Below, piece by piece: positions 4,122-41,964 of a stretch of DNA of 64,000 bases. Position 1 is the first letter of the stretch; every line of letters starts with the position of its first letter. This DNA comes from Chloroflexota bacterium. GTDB taxonomy: Bacteria > Chloroflexota > Chloroflexia > DAOUBH01. The stretch covers positions 15,982-79,981 of the forward strand of contig DAOUBH010000024.1 of the NCBI GenBank assembly GCA_034432775.1, read 5' to 3'. The translations under genes and the position numbers were made by a program. The notes under the pieces are model-generated. The model was not told the origin of the DNA. It saw only the letters and a list, made by a program, of their open reading frames with translations, and searched no databases.

Positions 4122-5193
4122 AGACCAAGACATCTTGGACCTTCCGGCTCTCGTCACACAGTTGCCGGAAAATGTTCGCAAGAAGTTCGATCGCATTTTC
4201 GACGTCTCTGTGGCCGAGGGTAGTCTTGTGCCACCTCCAGAAATGGTGCCATGGATCGAGAGGCAGTTCGGCTCCTTGGATTTTGTGACCCGCCAGCGCA
4301 TTGTGAAGGTGACCAACAAGGTGGTATGGGAGGGGACACTCTACAATGATTTAAGGTCCAGACGGCCCGTGCAGGTTACGGTCGACGGCGATTTAAGGGC
4401 TTCCATCGAGGAGACCACCGGAGATCCCTTCTGCGCCCCCCATATTGGAACGCCCGCCGATGTATTCGGCAGGGTAAGTGGGCGTTTCAGTGTTTCGGCG
4501 AGCAACGTCGCCAAATACGATGGGTACCATGGGGTCATCGTCTTCGACGAGCACGATCCACTTAAACTCTCAGAGGAACGGGTGCTGGATTATGTTGACA
4601 CGGCCCTCGCCTGGGTCCGGCAGGTACTGCGCGTAGATCCGGAGGCCAAGTATATCTTCATCATGTGGAACTGCCTGTGGAAGAGCGGTGCGTCTATCGT
4701 CCACGGCCACATCCAAGTCACAGCTACTAAGGGCAGGCATTACGCGAAGGTAGAATGGCTGAGGGAAAGCAGCGCCCGCTATCGTGACCTTCATGGATCC
4801 AGCTATTTCGACGATCTCTTTGAAGTGCACCGCGAACTGGGTATCGGCTGGGGTTGGGAAGGGGCGAAGGTCTTTGCCTACCTCGCTCCCATAAAAGAGA
4901 AGGAAGTCTTCCTGTTGGCCCCGGCCTTGGACGTGAGGCTCAAGCGTGCCTTGTGGCGTGTACTCAGCGGTTACTTGAATCTGGGTGTCTCGAGCTTCAA
5001 CGTGGCAATATATATGCCCCCGGCAGGCCCCACGGAGGAAGACTGGTCGCATTTTCCTGTTGTAATCAGAGTCGTGGACCGGGGTGATCCGCGGAATCGT
5101 ACTGCCGATGTGGGCGCCATGGAGCTTTATGCCTCTTCCGTGGTTAGCAGTGATCCCTTCTTCCTGGCCCGCAACCTTCGGGCTTGCTTTTAG
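4105..5193 (+). CDS. GalT-like / HIT-superfamily nucleotidyltransferase or phosphorylase (DUF4921/4931-like)
   Basis: A histidine triad-like IVHGHIQV motif lies in the C-terminal half. 362 aa. Embedded between glgA and the GH57 gene. Overlaps the glgA end by 17 nt. Confidence 0.55.
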   Translation: MQQPPKDQDILDLPALVTQLPENVRKKFDRIFDVSVAEGSLVPPPEMVPWIERQFGSLDFVTRQRIVKVTNKVVWEGTLYNDLRSRRPVQVTVDGDLRASIEETTGDPFCAPHIGTPADVFGRVSGRFSVSASNVAKYDGYHGVIVFDEHDPLKLSEERVLDYVDTALAWVRQVLRVDPEAKYIFIMWNCLWKSGASIVHGHIQVTATKGRHYAKVEWLRESSARYRDLHGSSYFDDLFEVHRELGIGWGWEGAKVFAYLAPIKEKEVFLLAPALDVRLKRALWRVLSGYLNLGVSSFNVAIYMPPAGPTEEDWSHFPVVIRVVDRGDPRNRTADVGAMELYASSVVSSDPFFLARNLRACF

Positions 5194-5196
5194 GCC

Positions 5197-6603
5197 GTGG
5201 GCAAGGCTTATCTCGTAATACACGGTCACTTTTACCAGCCCAATCGTATCGATCCCTTCACTGGAGATGACTACACGGAGCCCGAAGCTGCTCCCTTCAA
5301 AAACTTCAACGAGCTGGTCACTTACCAGTGCTATGGGCCAAATGCCGAACTGAACAACTTTCAACGGATGAGCTTCGACCTGGGGCCAACGTTGGCTCAA
5401 TGGCTGGAACTTCGCCACCCTGATGTCCTAAACAAGATAGTGGAAGCGGACCGTTCTGTGGTCCAACGCTTTGGCTACGGAAACGCGATGGCAGCCCCCT
5501 TTGGGCACGCGATCCTTCCGCTGATTTCCAAGGCCGACAAGCGTCTTCACGTTCGATGGGGCATCCTGGATTTCCATGCCCGTTTCGGCCGAGCTCCTGA
5601 CGGAATGTGGCTCCCGGAGACAGCTGTCGATTTGGAAACGCTGGAGGTATTGGCTGAGGAGGGTATCCGGTTTACACTCTTGGCAGCGTGGCAGCTGCGG
5701 GCCAAACCCGACGTTCCCACTGGTCCCGTGGCGGTACGTCTACCCTCGGGCCGGTTTTTGCACTGTTTTTGCTTCGATCCGCAACTCTCGAAGCATCTCT
5801 CCTTCAATCCCAGGGTCTCGGAAAGTGCCCCCGCCTTCGCGTCCCTGGCCTTACCCATGCGCTTGGATTGGAAGTTGGAGATATCCGGCAACGATCAGCT
5901 GGTTTTGATAGCTACAGATGGGGAGCTTTACGGGCATCACCAGAAATTTAGGGACCTCTTCTTGGCGGACCTCCTGAATCACAGGGCCGAGGAGGCGGGT
6001 TTCACTGTCAGCCCGCTGTCGCTGGTGCACAGGCTGCTTCCGGTACAGGCAGAGGTCGAAATAGAGGAGATGAGTTCTTGGAGCTGCTTCCATCGATTGG
6101 GTCGGTGGACGGGAGGCTGTCCTTGCTCCCCGGGCCACGGGTGGAAGGGACCCTTCAGACTTGCTATGGAGAGTCTATGGCACCAGGTGCGTGAGGTCTT
6201 CCGGAACGAGGTGGGCCGGCTCATCTTAGATCCTGAAAACCTGTTGCTCCAGTATCCTACTGTAAGGGGCCGTCCTAACAGCTTCGCAAGCCTGGCAGCA
6301 AGTTTGGCCAAAGGCTCCCTGTCCCAATCGCAGCTCGATCTGTTGGAGCGTCTGTGCGAAGCTATGTATTACCGTGCCCTTAGCCAAGGCAGCGATGCTC
6401 TCTTCTTCGATGAGTTATCTAGGCTCGAACCTAGGTATGCCCTTGCAGCAGCGAAGCGGGCCCTGCGATTGGTTGGTGAGATGGTGCCTGGGCTGGAGGA
6501 CGATTTCATAAAGCGGCTCTCCGGAGCCACGAGCATCACCACCGGTGCTAAGGCTGTCGACATTTATGTGTCGCTGGGTCCTGAAGGGGGTGATGAAACT
6601 TAA
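5197..6603 (+). CDS. Glycoside hydrolase family 57 protein (putative alpha-1,4-glucan branching enzyme/amylase)
   Basis: The N-terminal HGHFYQPNR motif is the GH57 hallmark. 468 aa. GTG start. Confidence 0.85.
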   Translation: MGKAYLVIHGHFYQPNRIDPFTGDDYTEPEAAPFKNFNELVTYQCYGPNAELNNFQRMSFDLGPTLAQWLELRHPDVLNKIVEADRSVVQRFGYGNAMAAPFGHAILPLISKADKRLHVRWGILDFHARFGRAPDGMWLPETAVDLETLEVLAEEGIRFTLLAAWQLRAKPDVPTGPVAVRLPSGRFLHCFCFDPQLSKHLSFNPRVSESAPAFASLALPMRLDWKLEISGNDQLVLIATDGELYGHHQKFRDLFLADLLNHRAEEAGFTVSPLSLVHRLLPVQAEVEIEEMSSWSCFHRLGRWTGGCPCSPGHGWKGPFRLAMESLWHQVREVFRNEVGRLILDPENLLLQYPTVRGRPNSFASLAASLAKGSLSQSQLDLLERLCEAMYYRALSQGSDALFFDELSRLEPRYALAAAKRALRLVGEMVPGLEDDFIKRLSGATSITTGAKAVDIYVSLGPEGGDET

Positions 6604-37915: not shown

Positions 37916-39234
37916 CGGAGACAGCAGTGACCATAGAGAGATACGCGCATCCCAAGATGGCACAACTTTGGAGCGAGCAGGCCAAGTTCGAGAGATGGCT
38001 GCAAGTGGAGTTGGCTGTGACCGAAGCCTGGGCCCAATTGGGCGAGGTACCCCGCGAGGCTTTGCCCCTTCTGAGGAAAGCCACTGTCGATGCAAAAAGG
38101 GTGAAGGAACTCGAGGCCGTTACGGATCACGATGTCGTAGCTTTCCTGCAGGCAGTGAGCGAGACCTTGGGTCCAGAGGCAAGATACTTACATCTTGGGC
38201 TCACCAGTTCCGATGTGATTGACACGGCCCTTGCCCTTCAGGTGCGGGATAGCATCGATGTAATCCTGGAAGAGTTAGTGGCGTTGGAGCGAACGACCAC
38301 GGAACTGGCCCTCCGTCACAAGCGCACGCTGATGATAGGTCGCACCCATGGTGTCCATGCGGAACCAACCACTTTCGGCCTCAAGTTGCTCGGTTGGGTG
38401 CAGGAGCTCCGACGTCACAAAGGGCGGCTCCTTGCAGCCCGGGATGATATCAGCTACGGCAAGATATCTGGCGCTGTGGGGACTCATGCTACCGTTCCTC
38501 CCCAAATTGAGGAGATTGCTTGCAGGAAGTTGGGGCTCAAGCCAGAGCCCGTGTCCACGCAAATCGTTCCTCGCGATCGACATGGAGCAGTGGTAGCGGC
38601 TTTGGCCCTTCTGGCGTCATCGTTGGAGAAGTTTGCCACGGAAATACGCCATCTGCAGCGCACTGAGGTCAGGGAGGTGGAGGAGCCCTTTTCTCCAGGT
38701 CAGAAGGGCTCCTCGGCGATGCCCCATAAAAGAAACCCCCATAAGTGCGAGCGTATCACCGGGCTAGCGAGGGTCGTGAGGTCATACGCGGTGTCGGCGT
38801 TGGAAAACGTTGCCCTATGGCACGAGCGTGATATAAGTCACAGTTCAGTGGAGCGCATAATTCTTCCCGGTGCTTTTGGATTGGTGGCTTACATGCTGGT
38901 TTCCTTCCGCACAATGCTGGAGGGCCTTGTGGTCTACCCAGAACGCATGTTGCAGAATCTCGACCTCACCCGAGGACTCGTATTTTCACAACGTGTGCTT
39001 CTCGCACTCATAGAGAAGGGACTGTCCCGGCAGGAGGCCTATGATGTGGTCCAGCGGCTGTCCATGCAGGCTTGGGAGGGTCCAGCGTCTTTTAGGGAGC
39101 TGCTTGAGGAGGACCCGAAGGTTTCCGCGGTGCTTTCCAGGGTTGAGGTTGACGAGCTGTTCAACTATGAATACTACCTGAAATACGTGGACGTTGCGTA
39201 TCAGCGTTCTGGGCTGGAGGACTCGGAGTCGTAA
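37912..39234 (+). CDS. purB: Adenylosuccinate lyase
   Basis: ERYAHPKMAQLWSEQAKFERWLQVELAV and the fumarate-lyase signature GSSAMPHKRNP. Confidence 0.95.
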   Translation: MTETAVTIERYAHPKMAQLWSEQAKFERWLQVELAVTEAWAQLGEVPREALPLLRKATVDAKRVKELEAVTDHDVVAFLQAVSETLGPEARYLHLGLTSSDVIDTALALQVRDSIDVILEELVALERTTTELALRHKRTLMIGRTHGVHAEPTTFGLKLLGWVQELRRHKGRLLAARDDISYGKISGAVGTHATVPPQIEEIACRKLGLKPEPVSTQIVPRDRHGAVVAALALLASSLEKFATEIRHLQRTEVREVEEPFSPGQKGSSAMPHKRNPHKCERITGLARVVRSYAVSALENVALWHERDISHSSVERIILPGAFGLVAYMLVSFRTMLEGLVVYPERMLQNLDLTRGLVFSQRVLLALIEKGLSRQEAYDVVQRLSMQAWEGPASFRELLEEDPKVSAVLSRVEVDELFNYEYYLKYVDVAYQRSGLEDSES

Positions 39235-40604
39235 GCTTCATGTCCGGCTCCTTGGCTTGCTTCCGCCAGTTCGGCAGTCAGGTAGTCTACGAACTGCTTG
39301 GCGGTGCGCCCAGTCCAGCCGCCTTGCCACTGGGCCCACTGAAGGGCTCGTTTCCGCAACACGGCAGGGTCGATTGACAGATGCCGCCTTCTGGCTAGCC
39401 CCTCGACAATTGCCAAAAACTCTCCTTGACCGGGCGTGACAAAGGTCAAGTGCAATCCAAACCTGTCCGCCAAGGATAGCTTCTCCTGCTGGGTGTCCCG
39501 CGAGTGAAGGTCGGCATCCATGTGCCTGTCGTGGAAGGACTCGCGAACCAGATGTCTCCGGTTTGAGGTGGCATACACAATCACGTTGTCGGGCCTTGCC
39601 TCTACAGTCCCCTCCAGGGCTGCTTTAAGGACCTTGTACTGAGTCTCATGCTCCTCAAAGGACAGATCGTCAACAAAAACTATGAATTTTTCAGGGCGGT
39701 TCCGCAAGCACGTCGCTATCCGTGGGAAATCGGCCAGATGCTCCTTTGCCACTTCCACTAGCCTAAGGCCTTGATGCGCAAATTCGTTGAGCAGCGCCTT
39801 TACCAGAGAGGATTTGCCAGTTCCTGCGTCTCCATAAAGCAGGACATTGTTGGCTGGCAGACCTGCCAAGAAGTGGCGGGTGTTGGAAATGAGAAGCCGT
39901 TGCTCCCTCTCATTGCCTATAAGGTCGGCCAAGGTTATGGGGTCGGGATGAGCTATAGGTTCGAGGTACCCATCGCCGTCCCGGTGCACCCAGCGGAACG
40001 CCCGGTATCGTGCAAAGGGTCCTGTGCCGTGTCGTGTCCAATAGTGCTCTAGGGCAGCCAATACTTCGCCAGCATTCTCCGACGACGCCAGGATACGCCT
40101 GGTCTGTGCTTCAGAGGGCAACAGGGGCCTACGCGCATGGGCTCCGAAGTGCTCCCAGTCAATCCGAAAGATCTGATCGGAGATATGTTGGGATACCATA
40201 AGGTGGAGTCCCTCCATGCCGACCTTCCATAACCGTCTGAGACAGCCTAGTTCCTGCTCGGCCAGATTGAGCAGGCCGGCGTCACAGGATGCGAGCCCCT
40301 GTTGCGCCACCGTCCTCGCTAGGATGTTATCGTCCTCCATCACGAGAGATATGAGATGTTCCCTGAGGGGGTCGCCGTCAGGCACTGTGCCCTGCTCGAT
40401 AGCCGCCATCAGCGACCGGGCAAGCTCGGTGTAGGCGTGAACTACTGCTCTAGCATGGGCTCGCCAAGCGAGCCGCCGCAGGAGAGCTCGTAGCTTCTCA
40501 ACGGTGCCGTCGCCCGTCAATCTGTGGAATATGACCAGGCTGTCAATGCCGGTAATGAGGTCCTGGAGTTCCTCGCTATTCAGGTTTGCATCCTCTCGGA
40601 TCAA
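39201..40604 (-). CDS. DUF815 / COG2607 AAA+ ATPase
   Basis: The C-terminal half (LIGNEREQRLLISNTRHFLAGLPANNVLLYGDAGTGKSSLVKAL) has a Walker A and matches DUF815. 467 aa. Overlaps the purB 3' end convergently. Confidence 0.75.
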   Translation of the reverse strand: MIREDANLNSEELQDLITGIDSLVIFHRLTGDGTVEKLRALLRRLAWRAHARAVVHAYTELARSLMAAIEQGTVPDGDPLREHLISLVMEDDNILARTVAQQGLASCDAGLLNLAEQELGCLRRLWKVGMEGLHLMVSQHISDQIFRIDWEHFGAHARRPLLPSEAQTRRILASSENAGEVLAALEHYWTRHGTGPFARYRAFRWVHRDGDGYLEPIAHPDPITLADLIGNEREQRLLISNTRHFLAGLPANNVLLYGDAGTGKSSLVKALLNEFAHQGLRLVEVAKEHLADFPRIATCLRNRPEKFIVFVDDLSFEEHETQYKVLKAALEGTVEARPDNVIVYATSNRRHLVRESFHDRHMDADLHSRDTQQEKLSLADRFGLHLTFVTPGQGEFLAIVEGLARRRHLSIDPAVLRKRALQWAQWQGGWTGRTAKQFVDYLTAELAEASQGAGHEAYDSESSSPER

Positions 40605-40635
40605 GTTGCACCATGAATCCTAACATAGCCGTGCC

Positions 40636-40664
40636 TTGACAATGAGGCGCATAGGTTGTAATCT
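40636..40664 (+). promoter_or_regulatory. Sigma70-like promoter TTGACA-N17-TAATCT upstream of Rad52-like gene
   Basis: TTGACA 40636-40641. TAATCT 40659-40664. Confidence 0.4.
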
Positions 40665-40673
40665 TAAAAAATA

Positions 40674-40685
40674 GAACGCATGTTC
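40674..40685. promoter_or_regulatory. LexA (Cheo-type) SOS box GAACGCATGTTC
   Basis: AGAACGCATGTTCG matches the Gram-positive/Chloroflexi LexA consensus CGAACRNRYGTTCG, with a perfect GAAC-N4-GTTC core. It sits between the predicted -10 and the RBS of the Rad52-like gene, ~70 nt from the divergent DUF815 start. Confidence 0.5.
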
Positions 40686-40695
40686 GGGTAGGAGG

Positions 40696-41256
40696 ATGGA
40701 GCAGGGCAGGAGTTTCGATCCGGGGAGGTATCTGAGGAAGCTGGGATCTGGCGAGTATCTTGAAGTGAAGTGGCGGTTACTTTGGCTTCGCACGGAGCAT
40801 CCTGAGGCTGTCATTTCGACAGAACTCGTGGAACACCGAGATGGTTTTGCTCTGTTCCGGGCGCAGGTCACGATACCCGGGAGCGGCTCGGCCACGGGCT
40901 GGGGCTCTGAAACAAGCCAAGATTTCTCTGACTACATCGAGAAGGCCGAGACCAAGGCCCTAGGTAGGGCCCTGGCGGCCCTCGGGTATGGGACGCAGTT
41001 CTGCCACGACTTCGACATGGGGCCGGACCAGCTCGGTGGGGAGCGTGTCGTGGACAGCCCTGTGGAAGTGTCCGAGGCTACGGAACGACAGATCAAGGCC
41101 ATCTACAGTACGGGAAGGAGGGTCGCAGGCCTATCGGAACAGCAGGTCGTGGACGAAAGCATCCGTCTTTACGGAAGGAAGCCCGAAGAGCTTAATCGAC
41201 GCGAAGCATCCGACTACATTAGCCGGCTGTCGGGAGACCGTGGATTGAGGAGATAG
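40696..41256 (+). CDS. Rad52/Rad22-family single-strand annealing protein (DdrA-like)
   Basis: YLEVKWR...; ...VTIPGSGSATGWGSE...YIEKAETKALGRALAALGYG parallels the Rad52 core and Deinococcus DdrA (..AYKAAVSDALKRCAVQFGIG). The start is uncertain because the RBS abuts the ATG. Confidence 0.55.
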   Translation: MEQGRSFDPGRYLRKLGSGEYLEVKWRLLWLRTEHPEAVISTELVEHRDGFALFRAQVTIPGSGSATGWGSETSQDFSDYIEKAETKALGRALAALGYGTQFCHDFDMGPDQLGGERVVDSPVEVSEATERQIKAIYSTGRRVAGLSEQQVVDESIRLYGRKPEELNRREASDYISRLSGDRGLRR

Positions 41257-41260
41257 GTGG

Positions 41261-41485
41261 ATGACTACACAAACTGTCGACAAGACAGCTACGAGCCAGG
41301 AGGGTTATACGAGGCTTACCCTGCGGAGGCAGGAATTGGAGCAGCGTTTAGAGGAACTGTGGAGGCTCGTCGACACGCTCAAGGCGCAAGGGAAACCCTA
41401 TAGGTCGGCTGAAGACAGGCTCCTGCGCCTGCTCCGAAGTTACGAGAAACTGTGCGAGGTCATCGATCGCTACTACCCAGGTTGA
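41261..41485 (+). CDS. Small coiled-coil protein, unknown function
   Basis: 74 aa with a heptad-like LEQRLEELWRLVDTLKA. Lies 4 nt after the Rad52-like gene, so likely co-transcribed. Confidence 0.4.
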   Translation: MTTQTVDKTATSQEGYTRLTLRRQELEQRLEELWRLVDTLKAQGKPYRSAEDRLLRLLRSYEKLCEVIDRYYPG

Positions 41486-41964
41486 GACGCTCTGCGATCT
41501 GCCTCGGCCAGGGCCCTTTCCACAGCCTCCTCCGGGGTTTCAACTGCATGCACAGCAGCTGGCCTTCCATTTCTGATGCAGGTCCAGGTGTTCAAGCCGA
41601 TCACGGGCTTGCCTAGTTTCAGTGCCAGCGCTATCTCCGATAAAGTGCCGTACTCGCCCCCTATGGCTATTACCGCATCAGAGCTAGCCACAATATAGAG
41701 GTTTCGCGCGTGGCTGGCCCCGGTAGCGATGGCCACGGAAAGGTAAGGATTACCCTGCTCCACTTCGAGGCCAGGTAGAAGGCCTACTACGACACCGCCA
41801 GCGGTGAAGGCGCCGCGGGCGGCGGCCTCCATAACGCCGCCAAGTCCCCCGCATATCACCGTAGCTCCCCGCTGTGCGAGAAGCCGGCCCACCGCTTCGC
41901 CGACCGCGGCCGTTGCATCATCACACTGGCTTGCTCCACACACGGCAATCTGCCTCCTAACCAT
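41473..41964 (-). CDS. TIGR00725 family protein (SLOG/LOG-like Rossmann fold)
   Basis: IAVCGAS...VICGGLGGVMEAAARGA...IAIGGEYGTLSEIALALKLGKPVIGL. Confidence 0.75.
   Translation of the reverse strand: MVRRQIAVCGASQCDDATAAVGEAVGRLLAQRGATVICGGLGGVMEAAARGAFTAGGVVVGLLPGLEVEQGNPYLSVAIATGASHARNLYIVASSDAVIAIGGEYGTLSEIALALKLGKPVIGLNTWTCIRNGRPAAVHAVETPEEAVERALAEADRRASQPG

Follow-up and report, generated by a model that had tools for sequence, protein, structure and literature searches.

The 64,000-nucleotide (nt) stretch of DNA analyzed here, which comes from a Chloroflexota bacterium (assembly GCA_034432775.1, contig DAOUBH010000024.1, positions 15,982 to 79,981; hereafter the window), carries a gene for a 186-amino-acid (aa) protein whose predicted structure resembles the Rad52-type annealing proteins and whose promoter contains a perfect box of the form GAAC-N4-GTTC. 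On balance, and with moderate confidence, we favor the reading that this gene (called the annealase gene below, after the predicted fold of its product) encodes a host-chromosomal, putatively LexA-repressed, Rad52-fold protein of the single-strand annealing protein (SSAP) superfamily, with a sequence family of its own, PF27148, that is conserved across the Chloroflexota; both the regulation and the annealing activity are predictions drawn from the comparisons described below. The product is probably a damage-induced repair factor, and an uncharacterized one. The family is already catalogued, likewise without characterization; what would be new is the recruitment of a Rad52-fold annealase family as a conserved host SOS gene.

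The box in the annealase promoter

The case for an operator comes from comparison across species. We examined 80 loci, drawn from different species-level genomes with a gene for a relative of the 186-aa protein, together with three exact look-up loci; operators were counted over the 82 non-redundant loci, and the background was taken from the ~790 kb that make up the remainder of these loci. A perfect GAAC-N4-GTTC box was found just upstream of the homologue in 58 of the 82 loci, a number that rises to 79 when one mismatch is allowed; the background frequency of 0.028 perfect boxes per kb would yield ~0.7 perfect boxes. Alignment of 78 loci on the box gave a common layout of TTGACA, 17 nt, TAnAAT, ~6 nt and TA-GAAC-AnAT-GTTC-T, in which the arms of the box are essentially invariant and the inner four nucleotides and the flanks vary. 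The closest relative (locus L002; 76% protein identity by tblastn) has GAACTTTTGTTC at the equivalent place. These data mark the conserved box as the phylogenetic footprint of a predicted operator that overlaps the transcription start, and they uphold an earlier interpretation of this stretch made without database searches (the sequence-only reading), which had placed a LexA box between the -10 hexamer and the ribosome-binding site. Taken by itself, the window offers no support for the operator claim: it holds one perfect box where 0.87 are expected and 19 one-mismatch sites where 21 are expected, so the count is no different from chance.

Within the window, the promoter was read by eye as TTGACA, a 17-nt spacer, TAATCT, the box and AGGAGG. 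Calls of open reading frames (ORFs) on the window sequence bore out all of the features that had been drawn for this locus, namely three ORFs and one divergent intergenic region, with the box and the 4-nt gap in place and an intergenic length of 91 bp. The features are listed here with their positions in the window; ssDNA stands for single-stranded DNA, and pLDDT for the predicted local distance difference test score of the structural model.

40673-40686, + strand: predicted LexA operator AGAACGCATGTTCG; an exact match, conserved, overlapping the likely transcription start
40674-40685, + strand: core of the predicted operator, GAACGCATGTTC, of the form GAAC-N4-GTTC; an exact match, between the -10 hexamer and the Shine-Dalgarno sequence
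40636-40641, + strand: -35 hexamer TTGACA of the annealase promoter, placed by eye; the layout recurs in the 78 box-aligned loci
40659-40664, + strand: predicted -10 hexamer TAATCT, weak, placed by position; TATACT in the close relative L002
40690-40695, + strand: Shine-Dalgarno sequence AGGAGG, which abuts the ATG; the start codon is backed by the family alignment
40696-41256, + strand: 186-aa protein of family PF27148 (Slr1353_N), a predicted Rad52-fold annealing or ssDNA-binding protein, from the ORF, its homologues, AlphaFold and Foldseek
40714-40998, + strand: N-terminal annealase-like domain, residues 7-101; a helix, three long beta strands and a long helix with EKAETKALGRALAALGYG
40999-41076, + strand: predicted disordered linker, residues 102-127; pLDDT <50 at 102-124, with an FCxDFD stretch and the VVDSPV motif
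41077-41235, + strand: C-terminal three-helix domain, residues 128-180; pLDDT >90, possibly a partner-binding module
41261-41485, + strand: 74-aa predicted helical-hairpin protein; an ORF 4 nt after the 186-aa gene, probably co-transcribed with it
40605-40695: divergent intergenic region of 91 bp, from the sequence
39201-40604, - strand: DUF815 AAA+ ATPase of 467 aa, from the ORF and a Pfam DUF815 match (E=1e-99); not counted in the module

A consensus promoter and terminator scanner made no call between 40500 and 41700; for the promoter this follows from the -10 hexamer, which matches at just three of six positions. The lack of any spacing between the Shine-Dalgarno sequence and the ATG (40690-40698) is unusual, and a similar layout is seen in L002 (GAAGGGGATG); it may mean unusual initiation, or pairing through the upstream GGGTAGG.

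The motif itself points to LexA, since the LexA motif established for Firmicutes and Actinobacteria is GAAC-N4-GTTC (PMC3323433). The compared loci contain 22 other perfect boxes, of which eight lie 23-25 nt upstream of ruvB, as identified by Pfam (L017 10462; L035 7947; L047 7912; L062 4331; L072 7492; L076 9955; L077 12454; L079 10606), and of the 17 ruvB genes whose upstream sequence is intact, 15 are preceded by a perfect box and every one by a box that departs from it at no more than one position. Because ruvB is a canonical SOS gene, the motif behaves as an SOS operator in these genomes; the sequence-only reading had looked to such genes for the same motif, and at ruvB in other Chloroflexota loci it is present. 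The LexA protein of Dehalococcoides ethenogenes, a member of the Chloroflexi, reportedly binds GAAC-N4-GTTC as well. Together, these observations support the box as a conserved operator of the Gram-positive LexA type, which LexA would be expected to bind. Among the open-access papers that could be consulted, an incomplete set, we found no report on a Chloroflexi SOS regulon or on a LexA-regulated host annealase. The long ORF of L077 fuses RuvB and QueA domains, which may be an ORF-calling artefact.

Some homologues are preceded by two perfect boxes: L072 (3521, 3550), L076 (5918, 5945), L041, L060, L077, L036 and L043. These are arranged either with one box between the -35 and -10 hexamers and one after the -10, or as a pair ~57 nt apart (as in L041, L060 and L077), which suggests that repression is tighter or cooperative in the lineages concerned. 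In the window, a 12-mer of the box, AGAACGCATGTT, recurs exactly within purB at 38940-38951, as GAACGCATGTTG, one mismatch from a full box, where the encoded peptide is P-E-R-M-L-Q. Of such sites, allowing up to one mismatch, there were three against 0.16 expected; the recurrence in purB is most likely a coincidence under coding constraint.

Predicted fold and sequence family of the 186-aa protein

With the family alignment as input, AlphaFold gave a model of the 186-aa protein with a mean pLDDT of 82. The N-terminal domain is composed of a helix (residues 24-34), three antiparallel strands (39-48, 51-60 and 64-73) and a further helix (80-95), all at a pLDDT of ~90-95, and a beta-beta-beta-alpha unit of this kind is typical of Rad52-type annealases. 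Residues 102-124 are disordered in the model (pLDDT <50), and residues 130-179 form a three-helix bundle (130-142, 148-159 and 168-179) with a pLDDT above 90. A Foldseek search against the PDB returned as its top matches the Sak protein of phage 80alpha (8qe9, E 6.9e-4; 8pq8, TMt 0.50 and root-mean-square deviation (rmsd) 3.8 A over 112 columns), human RAD52 (8rjw, 5jrb, 8bjm and 1kn0) and yeast Mgm101 (9yi9). Among the viral models of BFVD there were 65 matches at E<=1e-3, and those with names are ERF, RecT, Sak3, Rad52/59/22 and SSAP proteins; the match at rank 3 is a 405-aa phage protein annotated as PDDEXK exonuclease VIII-like, with 37% identity over 117 columns; it may unite an exonuclease and an annealase in a single fusion protein. 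The C-terminal bundle matched the C-terminal domain of Red-beta in complex with an SSB peptide (8tfu) weakly, at E 0.17 and TMt 0.63 over 66 columns; since small folds of this type are very common, the match is only a lead. With a beta-beta-beta-alpha core, and with annealases as its best structural neighbors, the model supports a Rad52-like SSAP fold.

By sequence, the protein belongs to a large family. A large-database search returned 3698 relatives, and PF27148 was already annotated on all 120 of the relatives listed; this assignment is a precomputed one, on an identical protein (P0001) and on the listed homologues, and the local copy of Pfam evidently did not contain the model. An exhaustive profile search for PF27148 gave 6450 clusters at 50% identity (E<=1e-3). 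A relative is encoded in 340 species-level genomes, nearly all of them Chloroflexota among those listed. Two PHROG groups of unknown function also matched (phrog_27776, E=1.5e-21; phrog_11717, 1.1e-10). The N-domain of cyanobacterial Slr1353 falls in PF27148 as well, again by precomputed annotation; in contrast, the sole NCBIfam match of the 186-aa protein, to NF058667 'slr1353 family' (17.1 bits, E=0.0054, residues 40-104), lies far from the cutoff of 100 bits, which places the protein in a different subfamily. No functional literature on PF27148 was found, and slr1353 appeared only as an antisense-RNA listing in one paper.

The 186-aa protein contains the stretch GWGSE...YIEKAETKALGRALAALGYG, and in the family alignment Y21, R27, W30, GWGSE and EKAETKALGRALAALGYGTQF are the invariant or nearly invariant features of the N-domain. 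The linker varies widely in length among homologues and holds within it a conserved VVDSPV motif, of which V119, D120 and P122 are invariant in family alignment A1; the C-terminal domain, of ~55 aa, is conserved too. Two motifs can be distinguished in the linker, an acidic and aromatic FCxDFDF and VVD(S/A)PV, the second of which is also present in a homologue from Thermus phages; both look like short linear interaction motifs. A scan of the longer family members (320-530 aa) for fused domains yielded no more than two DUF3072 matches, below threshold and in the C-terminal region, and PADLOC gave no match for the annealase or for the 74-aa ORF. Some homologues (P0004/L005, P0103 and several JGI entries) come from metagenome-assembled genomes that carry the label Sphingomonadaceae or Bathyarchaeota, probably because Chloroflexota contigs were binned wrongly, and JGI gives several of the long variants the name 'YbdZ (MbtH family)', in what looks like a mis-annotation.

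Gene contexts and neighboring genes

In the compared loci, the annealase gene keeps company with host genes. It is divergent from dnaN-recF, at a distance of 150-470 nt, in 38 of the 82 loci (L003, L017, L023 and 35 more), so that in these Thermomicrobiales-type genomes the LexA box would lie in the upstream region of dnaN too. In 22 loci ruvB is found 1-5.6 kb downstream, and in 12 Dehalococcoidia loci the divergent neighbor is a gene for an xerC/D-like recombinase of ordinary two-domain Xer architecture; the remaining neighbors are ordinary metabolic genes. Within the window, the 20 kb around the annealase gene (10 kb either side) contain housekeeping genes only, with no phage or integrase genes among them. 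The surrounding genes are of the tRNA 2-thiouridylase type (tRNA_Me_trans), recJ, a gene of the radical-SAM methylthiotransferase type (UPF0004 + Radical_SAM) and purB, along with a SLOG/LOG-like gene and the genes for LigT and IleRS. The content of guanine plus cytosine (GC) is uniform around the locus, at 0.54-0.60. The locus is chromosomal, as had been proposed from the lack of phage and integrase genes nearby, and the presence of the gene in 340 species-level genomes, the housekeeping neighbors and the even GC content indicate that it is vertically inherited.

The phages with a sequence homologue in the GenBank collection are solely the Thermus Oshimavirus P23-45, P74-26, G20c and TSP4. 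Their protein is 41% identical over 152 aligned positions (E=4e-30), which cover the N-domain and the VxDSPV motif, and its gene stands beside those for a DNA helicase, a Holliday-junction resolvase and a primase. It bears the label 'ssDNA binding protein' in three records of P23-45 variants (PQ158664-PQ158666), and we found no experimental characterization of it in the literature consulted.

The gene downstream of the annealase gene was traced by an iterated profile search of downstream ORFs. A homologue of the 74-aa protein occurs in 31 of the 82 loci, on the same strand and with a start that ranges from a 3-nt overlap to 55 nt past the annealase stop. The core of this family reads RLEDGY..I..A...G.DV..WE..W..LL.EYE..CD, from which the window copy diverges. 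A single-sequence model (pLDDT 87) consists of two long antiparallel helices. Nothing significant was found for the protein in Pfam, PHROG or NCBIfam, a word-indexed homologue search gave the protein itself alone, and a fold search turned up nothing beyond antiparallel helical hairpins of a generic kind, each at E>0.3. Conservation downstream of the annealase gene indicates that the ORF is a real gene and a predicted, lineage-restricted operon partner. Of the coiled-coil ORF described by the sequence-only reading, then, a real downstream gene remains, with a helical hairpin as its predicted form and with conservation in part of the loci. In the window, the 3′ end of this ORF overlaps the end of the convergent SLOG/LOG-like gene (41473-41964, - strand) by 13 nt (41473-41485), and no intrinsic terminator was detected between the two.

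On the other side of the intergenic region, the 467-aa protein is indeed a DUF815 protein: PF05673 matches at E=1e-99 and 333 bits over residues 199-445, covering profile positions 2-248 of 249, and PADLOC returned generic P-loop matches only. The ~200 aa that precede the matched region (residues 1-198; 40009-40604) have no Pfam match. In most metagenomic DUF815 relatives the alignment does not begin before residue 11-77, so either the N-terminal part is variable or the TTG start has been called too far upstream.

A pairing of this ATPase with the annealase had been proposed from their divergent arrangement, and it did not survive comparison. The genes for the two come within 6 kb of each other in 2 of 84 loci, those of the window genome and its close relative L002, and in L002 the two genes are ~730 bp apart with the box remaining beside the annealase gene. 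Neither the annealase gene nor the small ORF was present within 3 kb in any of 33 metagenomic DUF815 loci (38-62% identity, of unknown taxonomy), and a perfect box is missing from all 26 whose upstream sequence could be used, although some may use another LexA motif. DUF815 was rejected as a partner on the conservation of adjacency, reverse linkage and boxes, and we judge the pairing to be a lineage-specific accident of gene order between unrelated neighbors. In the window genome itself, LexA at 40674-40685 might influence the DUF815 promoter. The L002 locus has, in place of the 91 bp of the window, ~700 bp (5154-5860) without recognizable genes before the annealase promoter, in which two ORFs without Pfam matches are found.

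Proposed role, alternatives and known systems

Based on these results, we propose the following model. In the undamaged cell, LexA would occupy GAAC-N4-GTTC just past the -10 hexamer and block transcription. Upon DNA damage, RecA-stimulated self-cleavage of LexA would derepress the promoter, and the annealase would be made, together with the 74-aa protein in those lineages that have its gene. The N-domain, probably as an oligomer, would bind ssDNA at resected breaks or gaps, where it would anneal complementary strands or protect 3′ ends, and the C-terminal three-helix domain, tethered by the disordered linker, would act with the linker motifs to recruit a partner, for which SSB, RecA and a nuclease are candidates. 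What the analysis computed is the operator-like motif with its conservation, the geometry of the promoter, the fold prediction, the distribution of the family and the contexts of the gene; from these we infer LexA binding, damage induction, ssDNA binding or annealing, the state of oligomerization and what the C-terminal domain and the small protein do. More tentatively, at somewhat short of an even chance, we speculate that the Chloroflexota, and perhaps the cyanobacteria via Slr1353, possess a dedicated host annealase of Rad52 fold, which would rank among the most consistently LexA-controlled genes of the Chloroflexota, serve an SOS-induced annealing or RecA-mediator pathway absent from model bacteria, have a lineage-specific hairpin partner and share ancestry with the Thermus phage protein.

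Several results weigh against a LexA-controlled host annealase. A Pfam-A hmmscan at E<=1 matched the 186-aa protein to no family, including Rad52_Rad22 (PF04098) and SSAP_Sak (PF06378), the latter of which is matched at 5.9e-39 by 80alpha Sak itself. PDB sequences gave no match in either a single-sequence (phmmer) or a profile search, hhalign of the shallow and diverse family alignments (A1 and A2) against Sak or a Sak alignment gave a probability below 1%, and a Smith-Waterman comparison with shuffling against Sak was not significant (z=1.5). The best local alignment with Sak, itself not significant, falls on the equivalent strand-helix segment and pairs GSETSQDF..IEKAETKALGRALAALGYG with GSATTFD..INKAQKRCFVKASALHGLG. 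The PDB fold scores are marginal (E 7e-4 to 6e-2, TM 0.3-0.5), the beta-beta-beta-alpha unit is small, and dsRBD proteins appear further down the Foldseek list. In the window genome the -10 hexamer is weak and the Shine-Dalgarno sequence abuts the ATG. Neither lexA, recA, uvrA, ssb, dinF nor ruvB was found in the window by tblastn, for which the queries were LexA, RecA, UvrA, SSB and DinF of E. coli and RuvB, DnaN and RecF of Chloroflexota, all without a hit. Furthermore, no gene for a nuclease partner is adjacent in the window, where the neighbors are DUF815, the 74-aa ORF, the SLOG/LOG-like gene, LigT and IleRS; the adjacent exonuclease by which two-gene phage recombinases (Red/RecET) are recognized is thus absent from this locus. 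Since the fold matches and no sequence or profile link accompanies it, the protein is Rad52-like at the level of the fold only and forms a separate sequence family. The sequence-only reading had described a Rad52/Rad22 fold, DdrA-like; the annealase core of the model, with Sak, RAD52 and Mgm101 as its top PDB matches, bears out the fold, membership in the Pfam Rad52_Rad22 family falls away, and the likeness to DdrA becomes one of fold and analogy only.

The alternatives differ in how much of this reading they would change. It is possible, though we think it rather unlikely, that the gene is LexA-repressed all the same and that its product is an ssDNA-binding or end-protection factor, DdrA- or SSB-like, which would shield 3′ ends or gaps from nucleases. 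The label on the Thermus phage homologue and the lack of an adjacent exonuclease partner in the window both fit such a role, and DdrA, the known bacterial host relative of Rad52, mainly protects 3′ ends. However, the label is a depositor's annotation and not an experimental result, the fold matches (Sak, RAD52, Mgm101, ERF and RecT) are proven annealases, and the similarity of the domain to a phage exonuclease VIII-like protein recalls the classic pairing of an exonuclease with an annealase. Of far lower probability is the view that phage recombination was the original business of the gene, now domesticated or a remnant, with a phage-related (prophage-like or anti-phage) role and not one in the repair of host DNA. 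Annealases are typically phage genes, and phage homologues of this one do exist (phrog_27776, phrog_11717, the Thermus Oshimavirus group and many BFVD models), but the context was housekeeping in all examined loci, the window has no phage genes, the gene has been kept in 340 species-level genomes with its operator conserved too, GC is even, PADLOC found no match, and the recombinase gene next to it in 12 Dehalococcoidia loci is an ordinary two-domain Xer.

Two further explanations concern the box. With the box ~70 nt upstream of where DUF815 starts, an effect of LexA on both promoters is conceivable in principle, and the adjacency is retained in the closest relative; even so, a single LexA-controlled module of annealase and DUF815 sharing the 91-bp control region is very improbable given the 2 of 84 loci that have the two genes within 6 kb, their separation by ~730 bp in the relative with the box on the annealase side, the 33 metagenomic DUF815 loci without annealase or small ORF and the 0 of 26 perfect boxes there, and the divergent neighbors found elsewhere, dnaN in 38 loci and an xerC/D-like gene in 12. 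We consider it least probable of all that the palindrome arose by chance or is the operator of a regulator other than LexA. One perfect site per 64 kb is what chance would give, and no lexA gene is in the window, but against this view stand the position of the site, fixed within the promoter in 58 to 79 of the 82 loci, the motif at 15 of 17 ruvB genes, and a consensus, GAAC-AnAT-GTTC, that equals the Gram-positive LexA box (PMC3323433).

Should the favored reading of a LexA-repressed host annealase be true, a phylum-wide annealase under a strictly conserved LexA operator would represent a new class of SOS effector. Known SOS regulons center on recA, lexA, uvrA/B, ruvAB and the translesion polymerases. 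A function would be at hand for the large PF27148 family, and RecA-independent annealing repair in bacteria would become directly testable. Thermophilic members, from Thermomicrobium, Thermorudis and the Thermus phages, could serve as thermostable annealases in recombineering and in vitro methods.

To our knowledge, bacterial annealases are mostly phage genes, and the one well-known host relative of Rad52 is DdrA, of the radiation response of Deinococcus. DdrA of Deinococcus radiodurans is the best functional analogy for the 186-aa protein, as it is host-chromosomal, of Rad52-type fold, damage-induced and active on ssDNA ends. It differs in that it belongs to Pfam Rad52_Rad22, where the 186-aa protein has no match, and in being controlled through the radiation-desiccation response motif by DdrO/PprI and not by LexA; the PF27148 protein has, in addition, a distinct C-terminal three-helix domain and comes from another phylum. 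Structurally, 80alpha Sak is the best match (8qe9 at E 6.9e-4; TMt 0.50 for the domain without its C-terminal part). Both proteins combine an N-terminal annealing domain with a C-terminal helical region, and their best local alignment, though not significant, lies at the equivalent GS.T..D..I.KA....-helix segment. In contrast, Sak is encoded by a phage gene beside a phage SSB, whereas the PF27148 gene is a host gene with a predicted LexA box, and the two show no significant sequence or profile similarity. The N-terminal domain of RAD52 and Mgm101 share with the predicted model the beta-beta-beta-alpha ssDNA-binding core, but at 14-17% identity, TM 0.3-0.4 and an rmsd of 4.6-6.4 A.

Lambda Red-beta resembles the 186-aa protein in having a small C-terminal three-helix bundle tethered to its annealing domain. 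The C-terminal domain of Red-beta binds its exonuclease and the SSB tail; in the window no exonuclease gene is adjacent to the annealase gene. Finally, the Thermus phage protein is phage-encoded, has another C-terminal region and lacks a LexA context, but it is a true sequence homologue, sharing the N-domain and the VxDSPV motif, and it is encoded in a phage replication and recombination module.

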